Shown here: positions 23,464 through 60,337 of the stretch, piece after piece
Layout of the letters: every line of letters begins with the position of its first letter
Numbering within the stretch: the stretch's first letter is position 1
Source of the DNA: an uncultured Chroococcidiopsis sp.
Lineage (GTDB): Bacteria; Cyanobacteriota; Cyanobacteriia; Cyanobacteriales; Chroococcidiopsidaceae
Length of the DNA stretch: 64,000 nt
Assembly (NCBI GenBank): GCA_964248365.1
Contig: CAXTYC010000006.1
Location: 1 to 64,000, forward strand
Reading direction: 5' to 3'
Program-made: the position numbers and the translations under genes
The notes under the pieces: model-generated
The model's database searches: none
What the model saw: the letters and a program-made list of their open reading frames with translations, nothing else
What the model was told of the DNA's origin: nothing

Positions 23464-24282
23464 TTGGAATTAGCTCAAAAGATAGCAGCCAAATTTAGTG
23501 CTGTCCTCAAGTTGTAGCTATTGCTTTGGCTGGATCTCAAATAGCTAAAGTTTCAGATGATTTATCTGACTTAGATTTTTATATCTATACACAATCAGAA
23601 ATTTCTCTAGATATTCGTACCAATATTGCTAAGGAATTTGCCACTCGGATAGAAATCAATAACTCTTTTTGGGAACCTGGCGACGAATGGATAGATAATA
23701 ACTCTGGTCGTGGTGTCGATATTATGTACAGGACACCCAGTTGGATTGAAGAACAGCTTGATAGGGTTTTGGTACTCCATCAAGCATCGGTAGGTTATTC
23801 GACTTGCTTTTGGTGGAATGTTTTGATGTCTCGCTCTTTGTATGATCGAGATGGTTGGTTTAGTCAGTTGCAAGAAAAAGCTAAACAACCGTATCCCAGT
23901 CAATTAAGAAAAGCAATAATTGCTAAAAATTATCCGATTTTACGAAAGAACATTTCTTCCTATACTTATCAGTTAGAATTGGCAATTAACAGGAGTGACT
24001 TTGTTAGCATGAATCACCGCATCACAGCTTTGCTAGCAAGTTATTTTGATATCATCTTTGCAGTCAACTATGTGCCTCATCCTGGGGAAAAACGCCTTGT
24101 AGATTGGGCTAAAAAGCTATGTAAAAAATTACCCAACAATATAGAACATTACGTTAAACGTGGCAAGTGCAATATCATTGAACTTGGGCAACCAGGATGT
24201 AATTCACCATATTAATAGACTTATTGATAGTTTAGATGAATTATTAATAGCAGAGGAACTAATCACAGCAGATGAAAATTAG
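23464..24282 (+). pseudogene. Nucleotidyltransferase (DUF4037-like) disrupted by two frameshifts (~23503 and ~24155)
   Basis: LELAQKIAAKFS / PQVVAIALAGSQ...SDLDFY (Pol-beta GS...DxD) ...HPGEKRL... / NVASAISL...IDSLDELLIAEELITADEN*. Confidence 0.7.
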
Positions 24283-24458: not shown

Positions 24459-25025
24459 ATGAATCAGCCACTAACCGAACGGGTAATCTGGACTAAATCT
24501 GACTTAGATCTCTTACCAGATAACGGCAACCGCTATGAGATTATTGATGGAGAACTATTTGTGACAAAAGCACCACACTGGAAGCACCAACTAACGTGTG
24601 GTAGAATCTTCTCAGTACTTGATAGTTGGTCTGGATCTACTGGTTTAGGGCAATCTGCAATTAATCCAGGGATTATTTTTACCGACACTGATAATGTCAT
24701 TCCCGATGTAGTGTGGGCTAGTAATGAAAGATTAGCTGTTTTACTAGATAATGCAGGGCATTTAACCGCAGCGCCAGAGTTAGTAGTAGAGGTGTTATCC
24801 GCTGGTGGGGAGAATCAGAGGCGAGATCGAGAAGCAAAGCTGAAGCTGTATTCTTCTAGAGGAGTACGGGAATACTGGATTGTCGATTGGCAAAAGCAAC
24901 AAATTGAAGTTTATCGTAGGGAACAAGCGGTGCTAAGGTTGGTTGCAACTTTGTTTATAAATGATGAATTAACTAGCCCTTTATTACCTGCTTTCAATTG
25001 TCCTGTAGCTAGAATATTTGCTTAG
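24459..25025 (+). CDS. Uma2 family endonuclease
   Basis: RYEIIDGEL, PDVVW, PELVVEVLS, KLKLY..GVREYWIVD. Confidence 0.92.
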   Translation: MNQPLTERVIWTKSDLDLLPDNGNRYEIIDGELFVTKAPHWKHQLTCGRIFSVLDSWSGSTGLGQSAINPGIIFTDTDNVIPDVVWASNERLAVLLDNAGHLTAAPELVVEVLSAGGENQRRDREAKLKLYSSRGVREYWIVDWQKQQIEVYRREQAVLRLVATLFINDELTSPLLPAFNCPVARIFA

Positions 25026-25142
25026 GAATTAAGAGCGATCGCTAGCTTATTTATTCATTATATATAGACTTTATTACAATCTTGGGATTATTTGCTGGGG
25101 CATTAACTACAATTGCTATTGGTAGTTGAATGGGAGAAAGCA

Positions 25143-26384
25143 ATGCCCTTACGGCTGGTGAAATTTGCGCTGTCTCACAAGTACCCAGAACCGCGAATGT
25201 TCCGGCAGCGCGATCGCCTACGATCGAGCTATGATGCCGTTATTATCGGGGGAGGAGGTCACGGACTTGCTACCGCCTATTACCTAGCGCGAGATTATGG
25301 CATGAATAATATTGCCGTACTTGAAAAAGGATACATCGGCGGCGGTAACACGGGACGCAACACGACGATTATTCGCTCTAACTACCTCACGCCGGAAGGG
25401 GTAAAGTTTTATGATGAATCGGTGCGGTTATGGCAGGATTTAGCGCAAGACTTTGACCTAAATTTGTTTTATTCAACTCGCGGTCACTTCACGTTGGCAC
25501 ATACTGATTCTGCCCTAAGAACGATGCGCTGGCGGGCAGAAGTTAATAAACACTTTGGCATTGATAGCGAGTTGGTAAGTCCAGACGAGATTCAAACAGC
25601 TTGTCCGCACATGGATATGACTTGTGGCGGTCATGCGCCAATTTTGGGAGCATTATATCATGCTCCTGGTAGTATTGCGCGTCATGATGCAGTTGCCTGG
25701 GGATATGGTCGCGGCGCAGATCTAAAGGGGGTAGAAATTCATCAGCAAACCGAAGTTGTGGGGATTACGGTTGAGGCTGGGCGAGTAACTGGAGTAGAGA
25801 CAACGCGGGGTAATATTTCCACACCTCGCGTCTTGTGTGCAGTGGCAGGATTTACGCCGCGCATTTTGGAGATGGTGGAACTGCGATCGCCACTTTATAT
25901 CCACCCGTTACAAGCAATGGTCAGCGAACCGATGAAACCTTGGCTCGATCCGATTATCGTTTCAGGTAGTTTGCACGTATACGTTAGTCAAACAGCGCGG
26001 GGAGAGTTGGTGATGGGTGCATCGCTCGATCCTTATGAATTGCATTCTACACGCTCGACACTCGATTTTGCTGAACTCCTGGCGGCTCATATGCTAGAAC
26101 TATTCCCCTTTCTCTCCCACGTCAAAGTAGTGCGTCAGTGGGCGGGAATGGCAGATATGACTCCAGATTTTGCCCCAATTATGGGTAAAACCCCCATCGA
26201 TGGATTTTATCTCGATGCAGGTTGGGGAACATGGGGTTTTAAGGCAACGCCTGTATGTGGGAAGACGATGGCATATACAGTAGCAAGCGATCGCAATCAT
26301 GACTTAATCAAAGACTTCTCCCTTTCACGGTTTGTCAATTACGCTCTGATGGGTGAAAAAGGCGCGGCTTCAGTGGGGCATTAG
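25143..26384 (+). CDS. mgdA: N-methylglutamate dehydrogenase subunit A (sarcosine oxidase beta-like, FAD)
   Basis: IGGGGHG, GNTGRNTTIIRSNY, ARHDAVAWGY, WGTWGFKATP, C-terminal GEKGAASVGH; linked to gmaS/mgs. Confidence 0.85.
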   Translation: MPLRLVKFALSHKYPEPRMFRQRDRLRSSYDAVIIGGGGHGLATAYYLARDYGMNNIAVLEKGYIGGGNTGRNTTIIRSNYLTPEGVKFYDESVRLWQDLAQDFDLNLFYSTRGHFTLAHTDSALRTMRWRAEVNKHFGIDSELVSPDEIQTACPHMDMTCGGHAPILGALYHAPGSIARHDAVAWGYGRGADLKGVEIHQQTEVVGITVEAGRVTGVETTRGNISTPRVLCAVAGFTPRILEMVELRSPLYIHPLQAMVSEPMKPWLDPIIVSGSLHVYVSQTARGELVMGASLDPYELHSTRSTLDFAELLAAHMLELFPFLSHVKVVRQWAGMADMTPDFAPIMGKTPIDGFYLDAGWGTWGFKATPVCGKTMAYTVASDRNHDLIKDFSLSRFVNYALMGEKGAASVGH

Positions 26385-26386
26385 CA

Positions 26387-26644
26387 ATGAAAATTATGAA
26401 CTGTCCAATCAACGGTCAAAGACCGATTTCTGAATTTATCTACTGGGGTGAAGTCCGCCCGATGCCCGATCCAAAAACAGCTAATGATGCAACTTGGGCA
26501 GATTATATATTTAACCGCAATGGCGCACCTGGAATTAAACAAGAATGGTGGTGTCACACACCTAGCAACACCTGGTTTATTGCCGAGCGAGACACGCAAA
26601 AAGATATAATTTTACGCACCTATTTGTATGGAGTGGCAGTATGA
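26387..26644 (+). CDS. mgdB: N-methylglutamate dehydrogenase subunit B (sarcosine oxidase delta-like)
   Basis: CPINGQRPISEF, WADYIFNRN, EWWCH, ERDT. Confidence 0.85.
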   Translation: MKIMNCPINGQRPISEFIYWGEVRPMPDPKTANDATWADYIFNRNGAPGIKQEWWCHTPSNTWFIAERDTQKDIILRTYLYGVAV

Positions 26645-29559
26645 GCGATCGCCTTCCTCCTATACCAGGTGAATGGATTGACCGCAGCCAACCTCTTGAT
26701 TTCACCTTTGAGGACAAGCGATACTGGGGCTATAAGGGAGACACTGTAACAAGTGCATTGTGTGCCAGTGGGCAGCATATTCTCGGACGCAGTTTTAAAT
26801 ATCATCGTCCGCGTGGAATTTTAAGCCTTGCCAACCATGATATTAATGCCTTGATGCAGTCGGGACAAGAACTGAATTTACGGGCAGATGTTACACCCTT
26901 AGAGGCTGGAATGTCGCTAACGGCGGTTAATACCTTTGGTGGTATAATGAGCGATCGCCTTAGCGTTCTGGGCTTGTTCTCCTCATTTCTACCTGTTGGC
27001 TTTTACTACAAAGCTTTTCACAACAAACGGCTGTTTCCCTTCTGGGAACGTTTGATTCGCAATATTGGTGGACTGGGTAAATTGGATGTTTCCACTCCAC
27101 GTATCCGTACACCAAAGCGCTATGACTTTTGTGACGTGCTGGTAATTGGGGCGGGTGTGTCAGGACTAGCAGCAGCATTGGCGGCGGCGGATGCAGGTGC
27201 AGATGTCGTCATTGTGGATGAAAATGCACGGGCTGGCGGATCGGGGAGTTATCAGCTAGGAGGTTGGGGCGATCGCCAGGAAAAAACAGCCAAATTACTA
27301 GGTGCTGTAGAGTCTCATCCGCGCATCCGAGTCTACACACAAACACAGGCGGCAGGGTATTACGCAGATCATTGGATACCTTTAGTCGAGCGCGATCGCC
27401 TTGTCAAAATGCGGGCGAAAACGGTAATAGTGGCAAGTGGAGCTTACGAGCAACCAGCGGTATTTCGTAATAATGACATTCCTGGCGTAATGTTAGCAAC
27501 AGCTGCACAACGGCTAATCTATCGTTATGCAGTAAAACCGATGCATCGGGCAGTAGTGCTAACAGCCAACAGTGACGGTTATCGGGCTGCTTTGGATCTA
27601 GCCAATCACGGTGTTACAATCATGGCGATCGTCGATTTGCGCCCCCTTCCGACGGTAAATGATGTGACTCAAAAAGTGCGATCGCTTGGTATTCCCATCT
27701 TTTCAAATTATTGTATATACGAAGCTAAACGAAATCCTGGCGGTGATGGTGTTAGTTCTGCTGTCATTTGTCCCTGGGATGCAAACAGTCAACCGCAAAT
27801 AGGATCGAGTCAAGCGATCGCCTGTGATGGCATAGTTATGAGTGTAGGTTGGTGTCCAGCAGCTAGCTTGCTGTACCAAGCAGGAACCCAAATGCGCTAT
27901 GATGACTTTTTGCAGCAATTCGTCCCAGAAATATTGCCCCCTGGCGTGTTTGCCTGTGGTCGGGTAAACGGAGTATTTGAATTTGAGCAAAAATTCCTAG
28001 ATGGTCGTCGGGCGGGGTTAGAAGCAGCAGCCTATCTAGGTTTGGCAAAGAAGGTAGACATTGCGATCGCCCCAGAATCTGAATCACCTTCTCATCCTTG
28101 GGCGATCGTCGAACATCCGGCGGGGAAAAACTTTGTTGATTTCGATGAAGACTTGCAATTCAAGGACTTTGTGAATGCAATTTCTGAAGGATTCGATAAT
28201 ATCGAGTTGCTCAAGCGCTATACTACCGTAGGTATGGGAGCTAGCCAAGGCAAACATTCCAATATGAATGCCCTGCGAATCTTGGCAAAAATTACGGGTA
28301 AATCTCCAGGTGAAGTCGGTACAACCACAGCCCGTCCGTTCTTTCATCCCGTACCAATGTCGCATTTAGCCGGACGCGGTTTCACGCCGGAACGACAAAC
28401 ACCTTTGCACAGCCGTCATGCAGCACTGGGCGCTAAATTCATGCTAGCGGGAATGTGGCGAAGACCGGAATACTATGCTCAACCAGGGAAAAGTCGAGAC
28501 GAGTGTATATGCTTTGAAGCTGAAGCTGTCCGTAACCGTGTGGGAATTATTGATGTAGGAACGCTGGGGAAACTGGAAATACGCGGTACAGATGCTGGCG
28601 AGTTTTTAGAGCGAGTTTATACCGGACGCTACACCAACATGAAGATAGGCACATCGCGCTATGCACTCATGCTAGATGAAGCGGGGGTAATAATTGATGA
28701 CGGGGTAATTGCGCGACTGGGAACGGAGCATTTCTACTTCACTACCACGACAGGAGGCGCAACGAATATCTACCGCGAACTTTCACGGCTGAATACAATA
28801 TGGCAGATGGACTGCGGCATAGTCAACTTAACTGGGGCGCGATCGGCGATTAATTTGGCAGGGTTGGATGCGCGAAATGTACTTGCTAAATTAACCGATC
28901 TCGATCTTTCCACCACTGCTTTTCCCTACCTAGCAGTACGCGAGGCAAAAGTTGCTGGAATTCCTGCTGTATTGATGCGAGTTGGCTTTGTAGGTGAGTG
29001 GGGATACGAAATTCATGTTGCTGCCGAATTTGCGGCGGCGGTTTGGGATGCTTTGCTAGAAGCAGGGACGACTTACGGCATTTGTCCGTTTGGAGTGGAG
29101 GCACAGCGTCTGTTGCGGCTAGAAAAAGGACACTTAATCGTCGGGACGGATACCGACGGTTTGACAACACCCTTGGAAGCAAACTTAGAGTGGGCAGTTA
29201 AAATGGATAAGCCATTTTTCATCGGTCAGCGCAGCTTACAAGCGATCGCCTCTCGGCAGGTTAAACAAAAGCTAGTCGGCTTCATGCTAGATAGTAACTT
29301 TCAGGGTACTCCCCCGCAAGAGTGCCATTTAGTCATTGATCGCGGCGACATTGCTGGGCGCGTTACCAGTATTGCCTTTAGTCCCACACTCAAACGGTAC
29401 ATTGGGCTAGCATACATCAAACTAGAATTGGGCAATTGCTTCTCAATCCGCTTGTCTGACGGTTCGCTTGTTAACGCAACTGTCAGCCAAACACCATTCT
29501 ACGATCCTGAAAATACGCGCCAACGAGAGGCGATCGCACATCAGGAAGTCGCCGTATGA
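26641..29559 (+). CDS. mgdC: N-methylglutamate dehydrogenase subunit C (sarcosine oxidase alpha-like, with GcvT folate-binding domain)
   Basis: GRSFKYHRPRG, IGAGVSG, KRYTTVGMG.SQGK, IIDDGV, GEWGYE, LRLEKG. Confidence 0.85.
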   Translation: MSDRLPPIPGEWIDRSQPLDFTFEDKRYWGYKGDTVTSALCASGQHILGRSFKYHRPRGILSLANHDINALMQSGQELNLRADVTPLEAGMSLTAVNTFGGIMSDRLSVLGLFSSFLPVGFYYKAFHNKRLFPFWERLIRNIGGLGKLDVSTPRIRTPKRYDFCDVLVIGAGVSGLAAALAAADAGADVVIVDENARAGGSGSYQLGGWGDRQEKTAKLLGAVESHPRIRVYTQTQAAGYYADHWIPLVERDRLVKMRAKTVIVASGAYEQPAVFRNNDIPGVMLATAAQRLIYRYAVKPMHRAVVLTANSDGYRAALDLANHGVTIMAIVDLRPLPTVNDVTQKVRSLGIPIFSNYCIYEAKRNPGGDGVSSAVICPWDANSQPQIGSSQAIACDGIVMSVGWCPAASLLYQAGTQMRYDDFLQQFVPEILPPGVFACGRVNGVFEFEQKFLDGRRAGLEAAAYLGLAKKVDIAIAPESESPSHPWAIVEHPAGKNFVDFDEDLQFKDFVNAISEGFDNIELLKRYTTVGMGASQGKHSNMNALRILAKITGKSPGEVGTTTARPFFHPVPMSHLAGRGFTPERQTPLHSRHAALGAKFMLAGMWRRPEYYAQPGKSRDECICFEAEAVRNRVGIIDVGTLGKLEIRGTDAGEFLERVYTGRYTNMKIGTSRYALMLDEAGVIIDDGVIARLGTEHFYFTTTTGGATNIYRELSRLNTIWQMDCGIVNLTGARSAINLAGLDARNVLAKLTDLDLSTTAFPYLAVREAKVAGIPAVLMRVGFVGEWGYEIHVAAEFAAAVWDALLEAGTTYGICPFGVEAQRLLRLEKGHLIVGTDTDGLTTPLEANLEWAVKMDKPFFIGQRSLQAIASRQVKQKLVGFMLDSNFQGTPPQECHLVIDRGDIAGRVTSIAFSPTLKRYIGLAYIKLELGNCFSIRLSDGSLVNATVSQTPFYDPENTRQREAIAHQEVAV

Positions 29560-30191
29560 ACACACCTCGCATCAGTCCCATTTACGACCAATTGCCGCTA
29601 AACGGAGTGTGGCGGGAAATCAACGGTATGCGATCGCTCGTTCGGCTAGCTGATGACGAAGCAAACGCGGCACGGTTGGGCATTGCTGATTTATCTTTCT
29701 TGACTCGCTTTGGTGTCAAGGGTGCGGCTGCATCGGCTTGGCTGGAAAGTCAGGGTATCCCCGTACCAGAGCGCCCAAATACCTGGTGTCATCTACCCCA
29801 GGGAGGTATTGTTGCTCGTCTTGGTATGAGTGAGTTTCTAATTGAAGACAGTTTGCACAGTAATGTCGCGCCTCGACTAGCGATCGCTTGCCAACAGCCC
29901 CCCGCCAAAGTTTATCCTGTCTTGCGACAAGATGCCGCGATCGCTGTTTGTGGTACAGAAATTAATCAACTGCTGCTGCAAACTTGTAGTGTCAACTTTA
30001 GCGCCGTGTCCATAAATGAACGTGAGGTAATTTTGACTTCGATGGTCGGTGTAGCGGTGGTTGTAGTTCCTAGCGCCGAGTGTTACCGCATTTGGTGCGA
30101 TGGTACGTTTGGGGCGTATTTATGGCGAACCTTATTGGCGATCGCCCAAGAACTTGGCGGCGGTGCTGTGGGTGCAGAACGATTGGTTTGA
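29556..30191 (+). CDS. mgdD: N-methylglutamate dehydrogenase subunit D (sarcosine oxidase gamma-like)
   Basis: DLSFLTRFGVKG, ARLGMSEFLIED, YRIWCDGTFGAYLW; ATGA overlap with mgdC. Confidence 0.8.
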   Translation: MNTPRISPIYDQLPLNGVWREINGMRSLVRLADDEANAARLGIADLSFLTRFGVKGAAASAWLESQGIPVPERPNTWCHLPQGGIVARLGMSEFLIEDSLHSNVAPRLAIACQQPPAKVYPVLRQDAAIAVCGTEINQLLLQTCSVNFSAVSINEREVILTSMVGVAVVVVPSAECYRIWCDGTFGAYLWRTLLAIAQELGGGAVGAERLV

Positions 30192-30209
30192 ACAGCCAAA
30201 GGTAGAAAG

Positions 30210-31256
30210 ATGTGCTTGGTGATTGATAATTACGTCAAAAATCTGATGGCTGAACATTCCCTCCCAGGTGTTTCGGTAGGTGTCGTTAGAGATGGCAACC
30301 CTGTATTGATGAAAGGATATGGACTCGCCAATGTCGAACTATCAGTTGCGGCAACTGAGCAATCTGTCTATGAGTTAGCCTCAATTAGCAAACCTTTTAC
30401 AGCAACCGCTACGATGATGCTGGTTGAGGAAAAAGCAATTAGTTTGGATGACAGCATCACCGATTACTTACCTGATTCCCCTGCGGCTTGGAAACCAGTA
30501 ACTTTAAGGCATATTCTTTCCCATCAATCTGGTATTCCTAGCTATACTTCAGTTGCAGACTACTGGAAGACAACCCGACAAGACATTTCAAAGCAGGAAA
30601 TTATTGCTCTAGTGGCAGAATTGCCATTGATGTTTGCACCAGGCGATCGCTGGTCTTACGACAATACTGGCTACTACTTACTTGGTTTTATATTGGAGAA
30701 GGTTAGCGGAAAACCTTATGAAGAATTTCTGCATGAGCGTATTTTTGCGCCACTAGAAATGAATGCAACTGTAATGAATAATCCCGCAACCATTATTAAA
30801 AACCGTGTTGCTGGCTACCGTTTAGAAAATAAAATTCTCTACAACAAGGAATACTACAGTCCTTCAGGTACTTACGCAGCTGGGGGGTGGTTGTCATCTA
30901 TTGCTGACATGGTGAAATGGGAAGGTGCTATGTGTACAAAAAAACTACTTAACCAATCTACTTGGGAACAGATGTGGATGCCCTACGAGACAGCGCATGG
31001 AAATGAGCGCGAAAAGTATGGTTTTACCCAAGGGTTAGGCTGGCATTTACCCAACTACACCAAGCGCAAGGTTTTAAGCCACAATGGCGCAATTAAAGGC
31101 TTTTCTACAAATATGTCACGCTTTGTTGATGACAAAATTACTGTCATTTTTCTATGTAATTTGGAAGGCATTCAAAGACCAGACGTATTTAGCAAGGCTA
31201 TTGCTGAACATTTTGTTCCTGCTCTAGCTCAGGAACCCTTCAAACCGCCAATCTAA
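30210..31256 (+). CDS. Serine hydrolase, beta-lactamase class C / D-aminopeptidase (peptidase S12) fold, no signal peptide
   Basis: SxxK (ASISK), LSHQSG, YxN (YDN), HNG. Confidence 0.85.
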   Translation: MCLVIDNYVKNLMAEHSLPGVSVGVVRDGNPVLMKGYGLANVELSVAATEQSVYELASISKPFTATATMMLVEEKAISLDDSITDYLPDSPAAWKPVTLRHILSHQSGIPSYTSVADYWKTTRQDISKQEIIALVAELPLMFAPGDRWSYDNTGYYLLGFILEKVSGKPYEEFLHERIFAPLEMNATVMNNPATIIKNRVAGYRLENKILYNKEYYSPSGTYAAGGWLSSIADMVKWEGAMCTKKLLNQSTWEQMWMPYETAHGNEREKYGFTQGLGWHLPNYTKRKVLSHNGAIKGFSTNMSRFVDDKITVIFLCNLEGIQRPDVFSKAIAEHFVPALAQEPFKPPI

Positions 31257-31292
31257 ACTTTATTAGCTGATTTCTAGTGGAGGATAGCTTAG

Positions 31293-32621
31293 ATGACACC
31301 AACAGAGGCGAAGCAATTTTTAGAAAAGCACCAGGTAAAGTTTATCCTAGCGCAGTTTGTGGATATTCATGGTGCAGCGAAAACAAAAGCAGTTCCGGCT
31401 TCACATTTTGACGATATCCTCAATCCTGGTGCTGGCTTTGCGGGGTTTGCTGTGTGGGGGCTGGGAATGCAACCCAATAGCCCAGACTTTATGGCAGTGG
31501 GCGATCCTGCTACGCTTTCACTTGTGCCTTGGATGCCTGGTTTTGCTCGAATGGTTTGTGTTGGTCACGTCAAGGGGCAACCTTACCCTTACGATACCAG
31601 ATTCATTCTCATGCAGCAGATTGAACGGCTCAGACAAAAGGGTTGGACTTTTTACACCGGACTAGAACCAGAATTTTTCTTGCTGCATAAAGACGATCGC
31701 GGCAATATATCACCTTTTGATACTTCAGATACCCTAGATAAACCTTGCTACGACTATAAGGGATTATCTCGTAGTCGTGCCTATATTGAAAAGTTGGTAG
31801 CCAGTTTGCAAGCTGTTGATTTCGATGTTTACCAAATCGACCATGAAGATGCTAATGGTCAATTTGAAGTTAATTACACTTACACCGATTGTCTCACCTC
31901 TGCCGATCGCTATATTTTCCTCAAGATGGCCGCTTCAGAAATTGCTAAGGAGATGGGTTTGATTTGCTCATTTATGCCCAAACCCTTCGCTAATCGCACC
32001 GGAAACGGTATGCATATTCATATGTCGATTGGCGAGGGTGAAAGTAATTTATTTGCTGATGATAGCGATGCGCGCGGGCTAGGGCTGTCTAAACTAGCTT
32101 ACCACTTTTTAGGTGGACTTCTAGCACACGCTAGAGCCTTAACTGCTGTTTGTGCGCCTACAGTCAACTCTTACAAAAGACTAGTAGTTGGGCGATCGCT
32201 CAGTGGCTCAACTTGGGCGCCTGCTTACATCAGCTATGGTGACAATAATCGCTCTAGTATGGTGCGCGTTCCAGGCGGTAGGCTAGAGTTGCGTCTAGCA
32301 GACGGCTCCTGCAATCCTTACTTAGCAACCGCAGTAGCGATCGCAGCAGGCTTAGATGGCATCGAAAAAGAACTACACCCAGGCGAACCACATAACCTAA
32401 ACTTATACGATCTCTCCCCTGCCCAACTCCAAGAAAAAGGAATTCATACTTTACCCCAAAGTTTAAACGAAGCGATCGATGCTTTAGACTCCGACGAAGT
32501 AATTAAACAAGCCTTGGGCGTATTAGCAGATGAATTCATCAACCTCAAGCGAATGGAGTGGGTTGAATATATGCGTCACGTTTCCCAATGGGAAATACAA
32601 CGCTATCTAGAGTTCTTCTAA
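31293..32621 (+). CDS. gmaS: Gamma-glutamylmethylamide synthetase (GlnT-like glutamine synthetase family)
   Basis: [49 protein letters not shown]; flanked by mgd and mgs genes. Confidence 0.85.
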
Positions 32622-32623
32622 AG

Positions 32624-32733
32624 ATAGCAATCTTGCCCATCCTTCGTCAGAACTCTCTTTATCTCTTAACTTTGCGCCCTCTGCGTCTTTGCGGTTCGTT
32701 TTATAATCTTACTCCTCACCTAAAACTGCTATA
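32624..32733. mobile_element. MITE-like element (ATAGCAAT...ACTGCTAT ends) between gmaS and mgsA
   Basis: Short imperfect TIRs and an internal ctttgcgccctctgcgtctttgcgg core shared with 62477-62589 and, inverted, ~41160. Confidence 0.5.
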
Positions 32734-33629
32734 TGTGCGGCATCGTTGGACTACTCGTAAAAAAACCTGAACTGCGCGAATCTTTAGGCGAACTGATGGT
32801 TCCGATGCTGATTGGCATGAGCGATCGCGGTTCTGATTCAGCCGGACTTGCCGTATTTACCCAAACATTAGCACAAGGCGATCGCAAGTACAGTCTCTAC
32901 TCTGGAGCCAAGGACTTTAACTGGACAACATTAGCTGACGATTTTCAAACTCAATTCGGTATTAGCCTCAAAATAGAAACTCATGGGAATCATGCGATAT
33001 TAGTTTCTAACCTTGCCCCAGATGTGGTAAGGCAATGGCTGACAAAATATCGTCCACAGTTACATATACTGTCAATCGGTCGAACGATAGATCTTTACAA
33101 AGATACAGGCAAACCCGCCCACGTTGCCGCTCGCTATCACTTCAAGTCTCTCAAAGGTTCCCATCTAGTCGGACATACCCGCATGGCAACCGAATCGGCA
33201 GTTACACCCGCCCACGCTCATCCTTTTACCGCTGGGGAAGACTTCTGTCTAGTCCATAACGGATCGCTGTCGAACCCAAATGAAATTCGCCGCAAACTCG
33301 AACCGCGTGGAATTCGCTTTGAAACTGATAACGACACTGAAGCTGCTTGCCGTTTCCTAGAATGGCGGATGCGCGAGGGGGATGACTTGGAAACTGCTCT
33401 CAAACAAGGGTTTGAAGAATTGGATGGTTTCTACACCTTCCTCATGGGTACTGCCGACAAACTGGCACTGGTGCGAGATGCCTTTGCTTGTAAACCTGCC
33501 ATTGTAGCAGAAACAGATGATTATGTAGCGATCGCTTCTGAATTTCGTTCTCTAGCTCACTTGCCAAACGTAAACAATGCCCATATCTACGAACCTGCAC
33601 CAGAGGAGTTGTACGTATGGAAGGTTTAA
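32733..33629 (+). CDS. mgsA: N-methylglutamate synthase subunit A (class II glutamine amidotransferase-like)
   Basis: MCGIVG Ntn start, RGSDSAG, GHTRMATES, VHNGSLSN. Confidence 0.85.
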   Translation: MCGIVGLLVKKPELRESLGELMVPMLIGMSDRGSDSAGLAVFTQTLAQGDRKYSLYSGAKDFNWTTLADDFQTQFGISLKIETHGNHAILVSNLAPDVVRQWLTKYRPQLHILSIGRTIDLYKDTGKPAHVAARYHFKSLKGSHLVGHTRMATESAVTPAHAHPFTAGEDFCLVHNGSLSNPNEIRRKLEPRGIRFETDNDTEAACRFLEWRMREGDDLETALKQGFEELDGFYTFLMGTADKLALVRDAFACKPAIVAETDDYVAIASEFRSLAHLPNVNNAHIYEPAPEELYVWKV

Positions 33630-34306
33630 CGTTCGATCTTAGGCAAACGCCCTTGCGCGAAATCAACCACTTTTTGCATCACGATGCTATTCACAACATT
33701 GGGCAAAAGGTGAAAATCCTTAATCCCGACGGCGCACATAACATTGCCGTTGGGCTAGATGCTCCGATTGAGGTAGAGATTGTCGGTCATGCAGGCTACT
33801 ATGCCGCTAGCATGAACAAGTTAGCCAACGTCACTATATTGGGTAATGCAGGTACAGGCGTTGCTGAGAATATGATGTCAGGGCGCGTGCAAGTCAAAGG
33901 CTTTGCTTCAGTTTCCGCCGGAGCGTCTGCTCATGGTGGGTTACTAGTTATTGATGGCAATGCCAGCTTGCGATGTGGTATTTCTCTTAAAGGCGCTGAT
34001 ATTGTAGTTGGTGGTAGTGTCGGCAGTTTCTGTGCATTCATGGCACAAGCCGGACGAATATTAGTGTGTGGAAATGCTGGGGATGCTCTAGGTGACTCGC
34101 TCTACGAGGCAGTAATTTATGTGCGTGGCAACATTAAATCTCTTGGTGCAGATGCCCAACTTGAAACCATGTCTGAGGCGGATTACGAGGCAGTTGGAGA
34201 GTTATTAGCCAAGGCGGGTGAGTCCTATAATCCCAAAGAGTTTAAGCGCGTTGCTTCTGCAAAGCAGCTTTATCACTGGAACGCGGATGCGAATCAGGAG
34301 TATTAG
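33617..34306 (+). CDS. mgsB: N-methylglutamate synthase subunit B (GXGXG / FwdC-like domain)
   Basis: GYYAASMN, GVAENMMSG, RCGISLKG, LGDSLYE. Confidence 0.85.
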   Translation: MEGLTFDLRQTPLREINHFLHHDAIHNIGQKVKILNPDGAHNIAVGLDAPIEVEIVGHAGYYAASMNKLANVTILGNAGTGVAENMMSGRVQVKGFASVSAGASAHGGLLVIDGNASLRCGISLKGADIVVGGSVGSFCAFMAQAGRILVCGNAGDALGDSLYEAVIYVRGNIKSLGADAQLETMSEADYEAVGELLAKAGESYNPKEFKRVASAKQLYHWNADANQEY

Positions 34307-34308
34307 AT

Positions 34309-35661
34309 ATGGATAATTCTCAATTTAACTCTTCCTCCCGCCAGGAGTCCTGGGGATACGATCGCCGTACAATCGACTACATCCAGAGCGCTGCTGCACA
34401 TGGACTATACGAAATTCGCGGACTGGGAGCCAAGCGCAGGCTACCCCACTTTGATGATCTGGTGTTTCTCGGTGCGTCCCTATCGCGCTATCCTCTAGAA
34501 GGATATCGAGAGAAATGCACCACGAAAACAATTCTCGGTACTCGCTACGCCAAAAAGCCGATTGAGCTAGAAATTCCGATTACGATCGCCGGAATGAGCT
34601 TCGGATCGCTCTCTGCTAATGTTAAAGAAGCGATTGGTCGGGCGGCGACGCAAATGGGAAGCTCGACAACTACGGGCGATGGCGGAATGACACAGGAAGA
34701 ACGGCTTTCCTCCAAAACCTTGATTTATCAATGCTTGCCTTCTCGCTACGGATTCAACCCAGACGACCTAAGAAAAGCAGATGCAATTGAAATTGTCATC
34801 GGTCAAGGAGCAAAACCTGGTGGTGGTGGAATGCTTTTAGGGCAAAAGATCAACCCACGAGTTGCCCAAATGCGGACATTGCCGGAAGGAATCGATCAAC
34901 GCTCTGCGTGTCGTCATCCTGACTGGACAGGACCTGATGACCTAACGATCAAAATTCAACAATTGCGAGAGATTACCGACTGGGAAAAACCTATTTATGT
35001 CAAAGTGGGCGCTTCACGTCCGTTTAACGATGTGAAACTTGCTGTTCATGCTGGAGCAGATGTAATTGTTGTAGACGGAATGCAAGGAGGAACAGCCGCC
35101 ACCCAAACTGTATTTATCGAACACGTAGGCATTCCCACCTTGGCAGCCGTGCGCCAGTCGGTAGAAGCGCTGGAAGACTTGGATATGAAAGGTAAGGTGC
35201 AGCTGATTGTTTCAGGTGGAATTCGCACGGGGGCTGATGTTGCTAAAGCTCTGGCAATGGGTGCGGATGCAGTAGCTCTTGGTCAGGGTATTCTCATTGC
35301 CTTGGGCTGCAACAGTGAAACCTACATTCAAAATGACACTCACTATTCGGCTTTAGAAGACTATGCTGCACTTGGTACCGCACCTGGCTACTGTCACCAC
35401 TGCCATACAGGTAAATGTCCCGTTGGAGTAACGACACAGGATGAAATTTTAGAACTTCGTCTTGAACCCGAAGTCGGAGCGCGGCGAGTCAAAAATTACC
35501 TCAAAACTCTAAATATGGAATTGACTACAGTTGCTCGTGCTTGTGGTAAGCAGAATGTCCACCACCTCGAACGCGAAGACCTGGTTGCACTTACGGTCGA
35601 GGCAGCAGCAATGGCACGTCTGCCACTGGCGGGAACCGATTGGATTCCAGGTTGGCATTAA
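34309..35661 (+). CDS. mgsC: N-methylglutamate synthase subunit C (FMN-binding glutamate synthase-like)
   Basis: AGMSFGSLS, GQGAKPGGGG, RHPDW, SGGIRTGADV, CHHCHTGKCPVG. Confidence 0.85.
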   Translation: MDNSQFNSSSRQESWGYDRRTIDYIQSAAAHGLYEIRGLGAKRRLPHFDDLVFLGASLSRYPLEGYREKCTTKTILGTRYAKKPIELEIPITIAGMSFGSLSANVKEAIGRAATQMGSSTTTGDGGMTQEERLSSKTLIYQCLPSRYGFNPDDLRKADAIEIVIGQGAKPGGGGMLLGQKINPRVAQMRTLPEGIDQRSACRHPDWTGPDDLTIKIQQLREITDWEKPIYVKVGASRPFNDVKLAVHAGADVIVVDGMQGGTAATQTVFIEHVGIPTLAAVRQSVEALEDLDMKGKVQLIVSGGIRTGADVAKALAMGADAVALGQGILIALGCNSETYIQNDTHYSALEDYAALGTAPGYCHHCHTGKCPVGVTTQDEILELRLEPEVGARRVKNYLKTLNMELTTVARACGKQNVHHLEREDLVALTVEAAAMARLPLAGTDWIPGWH

Positions 35662-35722
35662 CCAATTATCAATTAACAATTATCAATTATCAATTACCAC
35701 TTGTTCATTGTTCATTGTTCAT

Positions 35723-52552: not shown

Positions 52553-53149
52553 AAAGATCAAGCATCATTTGTTACCCTTTACATTGTAAATTTGCTTAGG
52601 AGGTGAAATTGTCCTGATGTAAACATTTTTGACCCTATGAGTAAGTAATTTTCAGCGAATTAATCTCGATATTTTAGTAGTTATTCTTGTCATGTGGGCG
52701 GAGTGTGGTATCACTACCACACCAAGGGATCTTGCTCGCCCTGATTACCGTGATTTAATTTTATTTGTAAATATCTATACAGCAGAAGAGGTGATAGATG
52801 TAGTAACTATTTAATCGTTAGCTGCTCAAAAAGGGCGATTTTAAGTCTTTTTTGCCTAAAACAGCATCCTGATGTAAATTAAGATTTGTATAGGGAAGTG
52901 TGAAAAAGCGTTATATAATCTTATTGCATTGCTTGCCTTTTTTATAAATAAGTGTTGCTAGGCTGGGAAAGTAAAAAATCATACCTGGGGCTGAGGAGGC
53001 TGTTGACCAAAGATATATGTAATTTGAGGAGGGCGAGGGGGAAAAGAAAATAGCGATCGCTATTTTAATTAATTCAAAGTAATCAATAGTGATCTTGTTA
53101 ATATCGGAAAAATATATCAGACAAAAACCCTTTGTTGGAGGATTTATCG

Positions 53150-54577
53150 ATGACTGATTCTGTAACAATCACTCGCCCAATTCCTAAATCAAAAGATAGA
53201 CTAGCACATTGGTTTCCTTACCTATTCTTGGGTTTATTAGCCAATGCAGCGATTTGGGTTAGTGCTGTAATGTACCTAAAACTGAAAGCACCAACCTACA
53301 CCAGCACATGGGCTATTAACGTACCTGTAACAACAACAGGCGCTAGAGTGTCTCTACCTGACATTGGACAGACCTCTTTTGACAGTACGTCGCCCTACAG
53401 TGTCAGTACTCAAGACCCTAGACAAAATTATAAATTTGTGGCTGAGAGTGATGCCGTATTGAAAGCAGCAGCAGATGGGCTCAATATGTCCCCAGAAGAG
53501 TTTGGTTCACCCAAAATCAAGCTGTCTGACAGCACCTCTATTATTCTGTTCCAGGTACAAGGCTCGACTCCAGAACAAGCTCGAAATAAATCAATGGCTC
53601 TTTACAGAGCCTTGCAAGCAAGAGTAAATGAGCTGAGAGTGCAAGAGTTTGTTCAGCGCGATGCTAGCTTCCAGTCTTCCCTCTCCGCTTCTCAGAAGAA
53701 GTTAGAAATTGCTCAAAAGCGGCTTTCTGATTACAAAGCCCAATCTGGCTTGAACTCCAACGATCAAATAAAATCTCTTTCAGACAACATTGAACAGCTA
53801 CGTAAACAAAGAGCAGAAATAGCAGCTCAACAGCAGCAATCAAATGCTCAGATGAAGCAGCTAGCCGCTAGTTTAAATTTATCCGACCAGGAAGCGGCGG
53901 ATGCTTTTGTGCTTCAAGCAGACCAAATTTTTCAGCAAAACGTCAGAAACTACAGTGAAGCTAGCAGTAATCTAGTTACTTTAAGCGCCAGATTTCTACC
54001 CAATCATCCAACAATTCTTGCTGAAGAAGCTAAGCGAGACGCTGCTAAAGTTGCTCTGCTGAGCCGCAGCCAGTCTCTTTTAGGGCGACCTGTTAGCCAA
54101 GCACTGCTACAAAAATTAAACCTCAATAGTGGTGGGGGGGCGCAAGAAAGCCTTTTCCAAGGATTGATTAATCAGCAAGCACAGAACCGAGGATTTCAAT
54201 CTCAAGCTAGGGAAACTGACAGACAGATTTTGCTACTTGAAAATAGACTCACTAACTTATCTCAAAAAGAAACTACCTTAGAAGCTCTCAAGCGAGATTT
54301 GCAAGTTGCTGAAGCAGTATTTACCTCAACTCTAGCTAACTTAGACATTAGCAGAACAAACGCCTTTGGGTCTTATCCCCTACTGCAAATGATTGCAGAT
54401 CCTAGCTTAGCCAAGGCTCCTAGTTCACCTAAAAAGGATCTTGTATTGGTAGGTGCAGCCGCCAGCTCTTTGTTTATTACCGCTGGAATACTAGGATTAG
54501 GGTTACGTAAACGCCGAAATTTGTTGTTGGAAGAGAAAAAGAAGTTTCGAGTAACTGAAAAAGCATCGGAATTTTAG
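53150..54577 (+). CDS. Polysaccharide co-polymerase / chain-length determinant (GumC-like, no kinase domain)
   Basis: N- and C-terminal TM helices, long coiled coil, Pro-rich PSLAKAPSSPK motif before TM2; GGAGG upstream. Confidence 0.75.
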   Translation: MTDSVTITRPIPKSKDRLAHWFPYLFLGLLANAAIWVSAVMYLKLKAPTYTSTWAINVPVTTTGARVSLPDIGQTSFDSTSPYSVSTQDPRQNYKFVAESDAVLKAAADGLNMSPEEFGSPKIKLSDSTSIILFQVQGSTPEQARNKSMALYRALQARVNELRVQEFVQRDASFQSSLSASQKKLEIAQKRLSDYKAQSGLNSNDQIKSLSDNIEQLRKQRAEIAAQQQQSNAQMKQLAASLNLSDQEAADAFVLQADQIFQQNVRNYSEASSNLVTLSARFLPNHPTILAEEAKRDAAKVALLSRSQSLLGRPVSQALLQKLNLNSGGGAQESLFQGLINQQAQNRGFQSQARETDRQILLLENRLTNLSQKETTLEALKRDLQVAEAVFTSTLANLDISRTNAFGSYPLLQMIADPSLAKAPSSPKKDLVLVGAAASSLFITAGILGLGLRKRRNLLLEEKKKFRVTEKASEF

Positions 54578-54654
54578 TAACTCAACATAAATATACTTTT
54601 TTGTGTCTTGTATTTGTGAATAGGTGCGATCAGGGGGTAATAGGAGCAACACGT

Positions 54655-55953
54655 ATGACCATCAAACCTCAAAACCTTGAGGAACGACTAATTTGGTACA
54701 CCATAGTCTGGACTTATGGTTTGTATTTCCTGGGAGCCCAGTTTATCTGGGTTCCTTTACTTGCCTATTTCCTAGGGCTACGCCTTTGTAAAAAACTCTG
54801 GGATCAAACTGAAGATACACCAACAAAAGAAAAGATTTATATTCCTGTTTCTGTGTGGCTATGGATTATTGCTGTATTAGTCGTGGAAATAGCTCTAATA
54901 ATGGCTCACATAGATTTTGATTTAGGTTGGTCAAAAATGATTTTTACCACGGTCAACAGCTGGGGTAGAAGCTGGGCTTTAATGGCACTATTTCCTTTAA
55001 TTGGTTGCCTAAATATTCGACCACAATTAATTTACCGAGCAGCCTGTATCCTTTGCTTGCAAAGCTTAGTTTTAACTATATTTTGTTATTTAATCAATTT
55101 GGCGAACTTATCCCTTCCAGCATATATTTCTCCATTGGTTATGTTTAAAGGTCCAAGCAGTAACTACATGGTAGATTTGTTTGTGCTTGGTGGAGATGCT
55201 GGGGAAGATAGACAGTTTCGTCTGCAATTATTTACTAATTTCGCTAATAACTTGGGAATTGTAGGCAATATTTATTTTTTTATTACTAGCCAAGAAGCAA
55301 ATAAAAGGTGGCGGTTGATTGGTATGATTGGAGCCGCTGCTATGGTTATAGGTTCAGGCTCAAGGTCAACTATATTTAGTCTAGCACTTGTACCAATCCT
55401 AACTTGGCTATTGACAAGTTTTACCCCGTCTCTACAGATTGCGGCAGGTGTAACAAGTCTGATTACAGGTATGATTGCCCCTCAGATAATTGATTTTTTA
55501 GACAATACATGGAACAAAGCTATTAAGGGTTATAGAAGCAGTTCTGCCGTAGTTAGAAAACGATTAGAAGAAGTTGCACTCAACCGTTGGACAGAAGCGC
55601 CGATTTGGGGACATGGGTTTGTAGCAGAAAGAGGACCAAAATATACAGAACATATGCCAATTGGCAGTCACAATCAATGGCCTGACCTTCTTTATATCAG
55701 GGGATTTGTAGGTTTCAGTGCTATTCTAGTGGTTATGTTGTGTACGACGGCAGATCTAATTATTAAAGCTCAGAAAAGCGCGATCGCCAAGGCAGCATTA
55801 AGTATCTACCTAGTTTTGTGGATATCTACTACAGCTGTAGATATAGAAGCATCTGCCTATTTATATTGGCCTGGTTTGATCATAACGGGTATTGCTTTCA
55901 ACCAAAAAACATCTACCGTCCTAAGTCCAATTAAAACTTACACCACTACATAA
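54655..55953 (+). CDS. O-antigen ligase / Wzy polymerase family protein
   Basis: About 10-12 TM segments, SGSR, PIWGHG, GSHN. Confidence 0.8.
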   Translation: MTIKPQNLEERLIWYTIVWTYGLYFLGAQFIWVPLLAYFLGLRLCKKLWDQTEDTPTKEKIYIPVSVWLWIIAVLVVEIALIMAHIDFDLGWSKMIFTTVNSWGRSWALMALFPLIGCLNIRPQLIYRAACILCLQSLVLTIFCYLINLANLSLPAYISPLVMFKGPSSNYMVDLFVLGGDAGEDRQFRLQLFTNFANNLGIVGNIYFFITSQEANKRWRLIGMIGAAAMVIGSGSRSTIFSLALVPILTWLLTSFTPSLQIAAGVTSLITGMIAPQIIDFLDNTWNKAIKGYRSSSAVVRKRLEEVALNRWTEAPIWGHGFVAERGPKYTEHMPIGSHNQWPDLLYIRGFVGFSAILVVMLCTTADLIIKAQKSAIAKAALSIYLVLWISTTAVDIEASAYLYWPGLIITGIAFNQKTSTVLSPIKTYTTT

Positions 55954-55972
55954 TCCCATATTTCTGGGTTAT

Positions 55973-57100
55973 ATGCATATTATCGCTTTAGAAAATCATC
56001 CGTCTTCTTTACGGGGTGGTCAAGAATTATTCTTATTAGAAACTTGTCGTGGTTTAGCTCGACGTGGACATAGTATCAGCCTACTATATATAAACGAAGG
56101 CAATCTGCTTGAGGAATATCAAAAGTTTTCTACCCATATATTCAAGGTTGATAGTTTCTGTATAGACCGTAGTAATATTTCGCGTATATTCAATTTCTTC
56201 GCTGATATTTGGAATACTCCCACCAGCCCTTCTAGCGTAGTCTTGAGTAATCAATATCATGACACCTTATTTGGTTCTTTATTAGCCTTATTTAAAAATA
56301 TTTCCCATATTTGTTTTCTTCAACTACCTCCACTTGAACATGGCTTTCCCCGTCCGCTTGCAATTGGACTCAAAGGCGTAAAACATTTCATTGCTGTCTC
56401 AAATCAGACTAAATTAGATTGGATTAAAAATGGATTTGAGCCAAAAAAAATTGATGTTGTACACAACGGAACTAACTCTGATATCTTCAAACCCCCGCTT
56501 AGTTTTTCTCTAAATAGGGAAAAATGGAATATTCCTGAAAACACCAAAATTATTTCCTATGTAGGGAGACTAGATAGAGAAAAAGGACTGGAAACGCTAA
56601 TTAAAGCCTTTGCTTTATTCAAAAAAAGCTGTCAAGACAGCAAGCTGTTAGTTGCAGGAAAGCCTTTAACCCAAGGTGAAGAATATAAAAAATCTTTAGA
56701 ACAGCTAGTGATTGATTTAGGAATAGAACAAGATGTAAACTTCTTGGGTCATGTGGCTAATACTACCTCTGTCTATCAAGTTAGTGATGTCGCCGTCTTG
56801 CCCAGTTTATGGTCTGAACCTTTTGGTAGAAGCAATATTGAATCAATGGCTTGTGGAATACCTGTAGTAGCTAGCCGCATAGGAGGCATTACGGAAATTT
56901 TGACAGGAGAATTCCAAAATGGGCTGTTTGAGCCTGGAAATGAATACGATCTAGCAAACACTTTAGATAGAATTGTGTATTGGAGAGATAAAGACCCAAC
57001 CCTGGGTAAGCGATGCCGAGATCATATTTTGTCTAAATTCACTTTAGACACAATGGTTGATGGAATTGAAAAAGTATTACTAAGGGTAGTTAAAACATGA
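55973..57100 (+). CDS. Glycosyltransferase family 4
   Basis: GGQE, VGRL..EKG, EPFGRSNIESMACG. Confidence 0.9.
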   Translation: MHIIALENHPSSLRGGQELFLLETCRGLARRGHSISLLYINEGNLLEEYQKFSTHIFKVDSFCIDRSNISRIFNFFADIWNTPTSPSSVVLSNQYHDTLFGSLLALFKNISHICFLQLPPLEHGFPRPLAIGLKGVKHFIAVSNQTKLDWIKNGFEPKKIDVVHNGTNSDIFKPPLSFSLNREKWNIPENTKIISYVGRLDREKGLETLIKAFALFKKSCQDSKLLVAGKPLTQGEEYKKSLEQLVIDLGIEQDVNFLGHVANTTSVYQVSDVAVLPSLWSEPFGRSNIESMACGIPVVASRIGGITEILTGEFQNGLFEPGNEYDLANTLDRIVYWRDKDPTLGKRCRDHILSKFTLDTMVDGIEKVLLRVVKT

Positions 57101-57308
57101 ATAAAATTTTGTAATCATACACTTAATGTTAATGCAACTGTATTTGAGCGCAAATTCGATATTTTCAACAATCTAATTAAGCAAACAAAGATTAATATTA
57201 AAATATCTATTCCTAGAAATAGTTAGCTCAAATTATGCATAGGAAAGATAAAAACTTAAAAAGAGACAAGTGATACTAATATCATGTTGTGTCCAAGTTC
57301 CCATAACT

Positions 57309-57430
57309 TCAGATCTTGCATCTGCGTTTGTTGCCTGGAGGCTCTTGCTTGCTAACCCTCAAAGGCAAGGCGAAAGCGTATTCACCAAAAAATAGAGAAG
57401 AGCCTCATTAAATACTGGTGCAAGATCTGA
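57309..57430. mobile_element. MITE-like element with 12-bp perfect TIRs
   Basis: TCAGATCTTGCA ... TGCAAGATCTGA; internal gaggctctt / aagagcctc IR. Confidence 0.65.
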
Positions 57431-57608
57431 GTTGAGGCACAATGGTTAATGAAATTGAGATCTTATTAACAGTGATAGAAAAATGAAATCTTACTTTAGT
57501 AAGTTATCCCAAAAAACAGAGCCTAGCGTTATACTGAAGAACTATAATAATCAGCATAATTATGCAGCAAGTACCTCATCTGAAGTTTGTAGGACTGCAA
57601 AGGAGCAA

Positions 57609-60315: not shown

Positions 60316-60337
60316 CTAACCTAAACTATTTCAAATT

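Follow-up and report, generated by a model that had tools for sequence, protein, structure and literature searches.

Methylamine breakdown through N-methylglutamate (NMG) is described in the available text of PMC7948447 as a sequence in which monomethylamine is converted to gamma-glutamylmethylamide by the synthetase GmaS, after which NMG synthase forms NMG and NMG dehydrogenase yields methylene-tetrahydrofolate (CH2=THF). The 64,000-nucleotide (nt) stretch of DNA analysed here, referred to as the window, comes from an uncultured Chroococcidiopsis sp. and carries genes for this whole pathway, which quite probably form a functional operon resident in the cyanobacterial chromosome. To our knowledge, cyanobacteria are usually assumed to be unable to use methylamine. 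[14C]-methylamine is a standard ammonium analogue in Amt transport assays, also for cyanobacteria, and glutamine synthetase (GS) makes methylglutamine from it, as stated in the accessible part of PMC10794816. The pathway itself is known but the phylum is new for it, and the window carries a lineage-specific variant in which a regulator is lost and a hydrolase gained. No report of the NMG pathway in a cyanobacterium was found in the full-text literature searched by pathway and gene names together with cyanobacterial terms, a coverage that leaves out most subscription journals, so that an earlier mention is possible. The nearest item was the heterologous expression in Synechocystis of the GmaS of Methylovorus mays No. 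9 (MmGMAS), as given in the text available of PMC12588301.

The described systems that the locus can be set against include two GmaS structures, an oxidase and a gene cluster. MmGMAS (9QUR) is active on methylamine and ethylamine and accepts many other amines; it comes from an obligate methylotroph and is used in theanine synthesis (PMC12588301, available text), whereas the cyanobacterial counterpart is known from sequence. The two proteins align over their full length (730 bits, roughly 70% identity by eye) and have all active-site markers in common. The GmaS of Rhodovulum sp. 12E13 (RhGmaS; 7CQL), for which the features separating GmaS from GS were defined (PMC7948447, in part), gives 360 bits to the window GmaS and shares its Arg/Asp/Glu triad, methylamine pocket, Ala at the GS Asp50' site and flap Trp, but has Trp189 where the window has Tyr195. 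Heterotetrameric sarcosine oxidase (2GAG, 1X31) has the beta/delta/alpha/gamma architecture, the GcvT-like folate domain and an aligned His in common with the putative dehydrogenase of the window; the window subunits differ in scoring under the curated cut-offs, in the linkage of their genes to gmaS-mgsABC and in the presumed substrate, NMG. The cluster of Zoogloeaceae and Azoarcus (regulator-purU-mgdABCD-gmaS-mgsABC) shares its gene order with the window and is the sister group of the cyanobacterial clusters in a concatenated tree. Identities to the Azoarcus locus L078 are 78% for MgdA, 79% for MgdB, 66% for MgdC, 47% for MgdD, 74% for GmaS, 75% for MgsA, 71% for MgsB and 85% for MgsC, and these clusters have the same divergent XRE-cupin regulator (70-72%) and a purU that is 77-78% identical to the copies of Stenomitos and Tildeniella. 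In contrast, the cluster in the window belongs to an oxygenic phototroph, has a GC content of about 0.47 instead of 0.65-0.68 and is rich in the octamer HIP1, while its genome lacks the regulator and a linked purU and has an additional S12 hydrolase gene. We take the Zoogloeaceae/Azoarcus cluster to lie in Rhodocyclales, like the characterised cluster of Methyloversatilis universalis FAM5.

Gene organization and subunit identity

Nine co-directional open reading frames (ORFs) occupy positions 25113-35661 of the plus strand. The original prediction, which described eight co-directional and partly overlapping genes at 25143-35661, had all eight genes and their order right but overlooked a ninth at 30210-31256. 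Its naming of the set as mgdABCD, gmaS and mgsABC is upheld by the assignment of all eight ORFs with NCBIfam profiles, which have curated cut-offs, and Pfam profiles. The features are:

25026-25142, plus strand: upstream spacer, without a cognate regulator gene and without an NtcA box
25143-26384, plus strand: mgdA, NMG dehydrogenase subunit, SoxB (beta) homologue, FAD/FMN flavoprotein (TIGR01373, PF01266)
26387-26644, plus strand: mgdB, SoxD-like delta subunit (PF04267, 94.8 bits; TIGR01374, 53.7 bits)
26641-29559, plus strand: mgdC, SoxA-like alpha subunit of 972 amino acids (aa) with a C-terminal GcvT-type tetrahydrofolate-binding domain (TIGR01372, PF01571, PF17806, PF08669)
29556-30191, plus strand: mgdD, SoxG-like gamma subunit (TIGR01375, weak at 26.8 bits; position conserved in relatives)
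30210-31256, plus strand: inserted gene for a serine hydrolase of the S12/beta-lactamase family, 348 aa (PF00144, 256.9 bits)
31293-32621, plus strand: gmaS, gamma-glutamylmethylamide synthetase (glutamate-methylamine ligase) (TIGR03105, 649.3 bits; 9qur_A; tree)
32622-32732, no strand assigned: gmaS-mgsA spacer of 111 nt with a genome-dispersed short repeat
32733-33629, plus strand: mgsA, class-II amidotransferase subunit of NMG synthase (PF13522, PF13537; synteny)
33617-34306, plus strand: mgsB, GXGXG-motif subunit, equivalent of the GltB C-terminal domain (PF01493; TIGR03122, weak; synteny)
34309-35661, plus strand: mgsC, FMN-binding glutamate-synthase-core subunit (PF01645, 314.6 bits)

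All eight pathway reading frames are full-length and tightly packed, with overlaps of 4 nt between mgdB and mgdC, 4 nt between mgdC and mgdD and 13 nt between mgsA and mgsB. The hydrolase gene is spaced 18 nt from the end of mgdD and 36 nt from gmaS. The ATG at 25143, which had been preferred as the start of mgdA, is likelier than the mechanically assigned TTG at 25113 because a Shine-Dalgarno-like motif, GGGAGA, lies 6 nt 5' of it. Scanning gave 28 promoter-like sites (21.8 expected) and 10 terminator-like sites (13.0 expected).

Ligation by GmaS is the step of the pathway for which homology and marker residues give the best support. GmaS scores 649.3 bits with TIGR03105 (cut-off 469.6) and 368.7 bits with the GlnA family TIGR00653, below the cut-off of 429.15. 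Its match to 9qur_A, named 'Glutamate--methylamine ligase', covers residues 4-442 with 730 bits (E 4.8e-219), compared to 360 bits for 7cql_A and at most 277 bits for GlnA structures. Marker residues, with definitions from the available text of PMC7948447, were read from HMMER alignments and an alignment of 113 sequences. At the site of GS Asp50' the window GmaS has Ala50 in the motif F-A-G (Ala48' in RhGmaS), as do 80/80 cluster-linked GmaS sequences, whereas GlnA of the same genome has Asp. The flap loop contains neither Glu nor Asp but Trp308, equivalent to RhGmaS Trp300, where the genome's GlnA has PGFE. The catalytic residues Arg320, Asp183 and Glu192 (Arg312, Asp177 and Glu186 in RhGmaS) are kept, and so is the methylamine pocket formed by Tyr153, Gln181, Glu185, Asn194 and Lys32 (Tyr147, Gln175, Glu179, Asn188 and Lys30'). 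The ordinary GlnA is encoded separately, on contig C42. A tree of GmaS and GlnA sequences places the window protein with cluster-linked GmaS, which together with the 9QUR match and the marker residues bears out the expectation that it is distinct from canonical glutamine synthetase.

The four genes upstream of the hydrolase gene are homologous to those for sarcosine oxidase subunits B, D, A and G, in that order, include a folate-binding alpha subunit and are linked to gmaS-mgsABC. All four proteins score under the NCBIfam cut-offs for sarcosine oxidase: MgdA has 469.7 bits with TIGR01373 (cut-off 529.45) besides its PF01266 match, MgdB 53.7 bits with TIGR01374 (116.5), MgdC 841.3 bits with TIGR01372 (1164) and MgdD 26.8 bits with TIGR01375 (143.95). 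These scores, and the identities of MgdA (77-80%) and MgdC (64-66%) to proteins of Zoogloea and Azoarcus clusters with the same gene order, agree with the earlier proposal that the Mgd proteins are not a true sarcosine oxidase. Structural counterparts were found in 2gag_B for MgdA (380.6 bits) and 2gag_A for MgdC (436.6 bits), and PF01571 matches MgdC with 253.7 bits. MgdA retains the His that aligns with beta-His173 of sarcosine oxidase, presumably the FMN-linking residue. A 2Fe-2S centre in MgdC, considered on account of an N-terminal Fer2_4 match, was ruled out since an alignment of 14 orthologues contains 0 conserved Cys.

In MgsABC the amidotransferase, GXGXG and FMN domains of glutamate synthase (GOGAT) are found as three separate polypeptides encoded beside gmaS. 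The mgsA gene starts with ATG TGC GGC ATC GTT, encoding M-C-G-I-V, which provides the N-terminal Cys nucleophile of a class-II amidotransferase. Purifying selection on the pathway genes is indicated by dN/dS values against the nearest relative of 0.108 for mgdC, 0.148 for mgdD, 0.052 for gmaS, 0.079 for mgsA, 0.098 for mgsB and 0.037 for mgsC; mgdA and mgdB, for which no pairing with this relative was possible, gave 0.041 and 0.113 against locus L074.

Host genome, distribution and origin

The host is a cyanobacterium: the 5.58-Mb assembly (completeness 99.97%, contamination 0.84%) encodes PsaA and PsaB. The cluster lies mid-contig between housekeeping genes, with ftsZ and aroC on one side and mazG, eno and clpB on the other. 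Within the 10.5 kb of the cluster the HIP1 octamer, GCGATCGC, is found 22 times, a density of 2.09/kb; the remainder of the window has 0.94/kb, and eight clusters from outside the cyanobacteria, proteobacterial and other, have 0-0.32/kb. GC contents of the cluster genes are 0.42-0.52 (about 0.47), against 0.65-0.68 for Zoogloeaceae clusters. Another 41 partial copies of the repeat in the gmaS-mgsA spacer (32651-32701), with 75-94% identity, are spread over many contigs of the host genome. The HIP1 density, the GC content and this host repeat therefore exclude contamination and very recent transfer. Metagenome contigs from public runs are 96-97% identical to the window; contig X1 spans the mgdD-hydrolase junction, and X1 and X4 span the hydrolase-gmaS junction. 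Since X1 and X4 come from two studies, the nine-gene arrangement is no assembly artefact.

Within the spacer repeat a small hairpin followed by a T-run (32681-32694) forms a terminator-like site, and the repeat may act as an internal attenuator or RNA-stability element.

The cluster is patchy yet recurrent in cyanobacteria and not unique to this genome. Species-representative genomes yielded 575 GmaS relatives, and the best 80 of these include 12 cyanobacterial ones with 79-90% identity: two Stenomitos frigidus records, S. rutilans, Tildeniella nuda, Phormidesmis, Hydrococcus, Aliterella, Chroococcus, Leptolyngbyaceae, Thermosynechococcaceae and two other metagenome-assembled genomes (MAGs). 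The top non-cyanobacterial matches among the best 80 reach 74% (Burkholderiales, Azoarcus, Zoogloea). By tblastn, the order mgdA-B-C-D-gmaS-mgsA-B-C is found in 12/12 cyanobacterial loci as far as contigs extend and in most of the 68 non-cyanobacterial ones, from Pseudomonadota (including Methylophilaceae), Verrucomicrobiota, Acidobacteriota, Planctomycetota and Spirochaetota. MgdA is 85-89% identical to its cyanobacterial and 77-80% to its Zoogloea and Azoarcus orthologues; for MgsC these values are 84-92% and, with Acidithiobacillus included, 83-85%, and for MgdD the identity in cyanobacteria is 52-73%. The proposed survey across cyanobacterial genomes did reveal recurrence: at E <= 1e-170, GmaS occurs in 19/401 genomes of a Cyanobacteriia class sample, the window genome (G000) included, with 8/39 in each of two families, 1/2 in one and 1/39 in another. 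In the window's own family 12/28 genomes, again counting G000, have the cluster and 16/28 lack it. Cultured carriers are Stenomitos frigidus ULC18 and Tildeniella nuda ZEHNDER 1965/U140. The other cyanobacterial clusters (these two and Phormidesmis, Aliterella, Chroococcus and Hydrococcus MAGs) share with the window the GmaS identity of 79-90%, the gene order and a single clade; they differ in retaining the divergent regulator in 9/9 loci with upstream DNA and in having no S12 hydrolase gene.

Small genes are often inserted in cyanobacterial clusters, encoding GNAT, methyltransferase, PIN, ABM and LMWPc-like ORFs. In the Tildeniella and Stenomitos loci L068, L069, L070 and L130, ABM-domain and LMWPc-like small ORFs lie between mgdA and mgdB, and L068 has a PIN-domain ORF between mgsB and mgsC. 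In the same four loci the mgdC tblastn match is split by 230-280 nt while a single ORF of 1021-1047 aa runs across, which points to an alpha subunit with about 60-80 residues inserted in frame. The gmaS gene is broken in L130 (Stenomitos frigidus ULC029; match split at 11089/11091) and, by one TGA, in G608 (C1:1375065-1376159), as a pseudogene or through long-read assembly error.

A different paralogue accounts for most other family matches. TIGR03105 is found above its cut-off in 27/401 genomes of a phylum sample, and 2 of the 26 positive genomes other than the window genome (32 places) have the full cluster. The other 24 carry an orphan GS-like ligase 38-46% identical to the window GmaS (loci L033-L064 except L048 and L049, for example L036:10001-11287 in G089), with neither mgd nor mgs genes less than 10 kb away. 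One such ligase matches Rhodovulum GmaS (7cql) over its full length with 633.5 bits, so that it is much closer to RhGmaS than the window GmaS is, and 24/32 orphan sequences keep every GmaS marker residue. An MgsC orthologue was not found in 5/5 orphan-ligase genomes tested. The orphan ligase could be the classical gamma-glutamylmethylamide-forming enzyme of cyanobacteria or a ligase for another amine.

Phylogenetic analysis groups the cyanobacterial clusters together. In a GmaS tree of 114 rows, 13/13 cyanobacterial cluster sequences group as a single clade (SH-aLRT 99) nested in an 81-row clade of cluster-linked GmaS (93), with the cyanobacterial paralogues and GlnA outside; the sister group is not resolved in this tree. 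A second tree was built from concatenated MgdA, MgdC, GmaS, MgsA, MgsB and MgsC (43 rows, 2,776 columns), using loci in which all six proteins had at least 85% coverage (42/81 candidates) plus the window. Its nine cyanobacterial rows form one clade (100), to which 11 rows of Zoogloeaceae, Azoarcus, a betaproteobacterium, Acidithiobacillus sulfuriphilus and a proteobacterial MAG are sister (100); a branch of Methylophilaceae and Thiomicrorhabdus comes next. Most likely, a ten-gene unit comprising the regulator, purU, mgdABCD, gmaS and mgsABC would have entered cyanobacteria once from a betaproteobacterium-like donor, long enough ago to have acquired a fully cyanobacterial composition and to be scattered now across several families. 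A recent transfer within the family was also considered, as GmaS is 90% identical to that of G302, which has another genus code, and 81-82% to those of same-genus genomes. This idea was dropped: there is no clear incongruence because housekeeping DNA ranks alike (aroC 83% against 80-81%, ftsZ 78% against 74%).

Regulator loss and the inserted hydrolase

A divergent XRE(HTH_3)-Cupin_2 regulator gene lies 5' of mgdA in 9/9 other cyanobacterial loci with upstream DNA (seven by Pfam; L070 and L149 by tblastn, 81-86%) and, at 55-76% identity, in 21 non-cyanobacterial loci from Zoogloea, Azoarcus, Acidithiobacillus, Methylophilaceae and others. In four Stenomitos and Tildeniella loci a purU-like gene, 77-78% identical to the Zoogloea and Azoarcus copies, is located between regulator and mgdA. 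From the window genome the XRE-cupin regulator is apparently lost; as a positive control, the query used located it next to mgdA in 5/5 same-family genomes. Homology to the nearest relative's cluster starts at 25130, 13 nt 5' of the mgdA start codon, and the place of the regulator is taken by a gene for a Uma2-family putative endonuclease (24459-25025) and a DUF4037 ORF (23526-24215). Since aroC is the neighbour of Uma2 on another contig in G302, the cluster must occupy differing chromosomal sites within one family. The four Stenomitos and Tildeniella loci share a conserved GTG-N8-TAC at about -240 to -270.

The hydrolase contains the motifs S58-I-S-K61 (SxxK), Y-D-N and H-N-G and has no signal peptide. 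Its closest PDB matches are 2qmi, a PBP-related protein of Pyrococcus (151.5 bits), 4y7p, 2dns and 1ei5, and its solved relatives include alkaline D-peptidase, D-amino-acid amidase and D-aminopeptidase; no specific NCBIfam family matched above cut-off. No hydrolase gene lies between mgdD and gmaS in 12/12 other cyanobacterial loci (gap 18-278 nt) or in 7/7 further genomes (G248, G302 and five of the same family). Orthologues with 58-59% identity occur in three relatives, and a same-genus genome has broken pieces only. The genomic context of these orthologues, examined as a clue to the substrate, gave none, the neighbours being mutually unrelated (HAD/arginase in G029, photolyase in G724, COP23/DUF427 in G722). 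With the regulator lost and the hydrolase inserted, control of the operon, and possibly its amine source, would therefore differ from those of relatives.

Two neighbouring regions were noted. At 35663-35717, directly 3' of mgsC, the summed contig depth in four metagenome runs is about 20-237 (two bins) against about 1-10 nearby, with many loose contig ends on both sides, which resembles a multi-copy repeat common to organisms of those metagenome samples. Positions 53132-64000 form a low-GC (0.34-0.41) polysaccharide-synthesis island encoding a chain-length determinant-like protein, GT4 and GT2 glycosyltransferases and a Wzx-type flippase.

Proposed pathway and alternative explanations

The genome encodes one Amt permease, PurU and FolD. 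In the proposed pathway, methylammonium would enter the cell, most likely through the Amt permease, and be ligated to glutamate by GmaS at the expense of ATP to give gamma-glutamylmethylamide. The three-piece glutamate-synthase-like enzyme MgsABC would then form NMG, as suggested by homology and conserved linkage. It is at the NMG synthase step that ammonium is released. MgdABCD may oxidize NMG back to glutamate, with the methyl group passing to tetrahydrofolate as 5,10-methylene-tetrahydrofolate. The net yield would be ammonium for GS-GOGAT and a C1 unit for the folate pool, handled by FolD and PurU. A search of the genome with one family of trimethylamine N-oxide (TMAO) demethylase gave no match above cut-off, which makes monomethylamine the simplest entry point to assume. 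Support for this mechanism comes from homology, marker residues, linkage and selection, from which we infer the use of methylamine as a nitrogen source; transport, induction and what becomes of the C1 unit are postulated.

Several observations weigh against the assignment as an active NMG operon of old proteobacterial origin. The Mgd proteins and sarcosine oxidase are not separable by sequence alone, and the Mgd assignment is based on linkage and sub-cut-off Sox scores. We know of no diagnostic residues for NMG versus sarcosine oxidation, and because of this the MgdABCD assignment rests on linkage. The true amine could differ from methylamine because MmGMAS, the closest characterised GmaS, is promiscuous (PMC12588301, available text). 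Neither the window nor the G000 assembly contains a match to the regulator (0 at E <= 1e-5), and the 400 nt 5' of mgdA contain no NtcA box, GTAN8TAC, either here or in 8 further cyanobacterial loci. The dS values of the six genes compared to the nearest relative (0.85-1.26) are near saturation. Both trees are quick searches and unrooted, so a proteobacterial donor and the direction of transfer are deduced from nesting only.

The alternatives differ in what they would make of the cluster. That it stems from a contaminating proteobacterium, mis-binned or mis-assembled into a cyanobacterial genome, has a negligible chance of being correct. The closest non-cyanobacterial relatives are indeed Betaproteobacteria, but the cluster sits mid-contig between ftsZ/aroC and mazG/clpB/eno, exceeds the rest of the window in HIP1 density, has a GC content well away from that of Zoogloeaceae (0.42-0.52 against 0.65-0.68) and includes a host repeat, and orthologues are present in complete cyanobacterial chromosomes. 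A cluster with no connection to methylamine, encoding a genuine sarcosine oxidase together with an additional glutamine synthetase and a small glutamate synthase, is highly improbable. Such a reading could point to the matches of Mgd subunits with the solved heterotetrameric enzyme (380.6 bits for 2gag_B, 436.6 for 2gag_A) and to the NCBIfam name of TIGR03105, 'type III glutamate--ammonia ligase'. It meets with four Sox-like proteins that all stay under the curated Sox cut-offs, a GmaS that lacks the ammonium-binding Asp and flap Glu of GS and misses the GlnA cut-off (368.7 against 429.15), a genome that already has its own GlnA, and eight genes that co-travel across phyla. That a horizontally acquired cluster has fallen silent or is decaying here, out of use since its regulator was lost, is very unlikely as well. 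The regulator is missing from a 99.97%-complete assembly while standing beside mgdA in 5/5 same-family genomes, and gmaS is broken in the relative L130 and interrupted by one TGA in G608; yet here all eight reading frames are full-length, dN/dS is 0.04-0.15, and related strains at 96-97% identity retain the arrangement.

An operon that is active but has a main job other than scavenging external methylamine is an unlikely explanation, if one with more to recommend it. It might detoxify methylammonium leaking in via Amt, or catabolise another small amine or internally made methylamine, for example methylamine released by the hydrolase from an N-methylated amide. The broad amine range of MmGMAS (PMC12588301, available text) would fit this role, as would the presence of the serine hydrolase gene inside the operon, which among the genomes compared is peculiar to the window genome and shared by metagenome contigs of related strains; the one family searched for TMAO demethylase gave no match above cut-off, so that no upstream methylated-amine route was found. 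On the other hand, the other cyanobacterial clusters examined are conserved without the hydrolase, the hydrolase orthologues of three relatives stand in unrelated contexts, and the identities of MgsC (83-85%) and MgdA (77-80%) to Zoogloea and Azoarcus proteins argue for the same methyl substrate. A more far-reaching proposal, which is doubtful, is that the operon has been rewired in this lineage, with a repressor-like regulator gone and a cytoplasmic, D-amidase-like S12 hydrolase as new entry enzyme, and that a set of mostly non-marine cyanobacteria are real methylamine consumers. If so, the hydrolase would free methylamine or a gamma-glutamyl amide from some N-methylated amide and the operon would be that compound's catabolic route.

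We retain the functional NMG operon as the preferred reading. The cluster would represent a clean case of an old transfer from Proteobacteria to cyanobacteria of a ten-gene catabolic unit, followed by complete compositional assimilation. Its role is directly testable, as cultured strains carry the cluster and close relatives (16/28 genomes of the window's own family) do not. If methylamine is fully broken down, Amt assays with [14C]-methylamine would mislead in operon-bearing strains, and oxygenic phototrophs would have methylated amines as a further source of nitrogen and, on a small scale, of C1 units.

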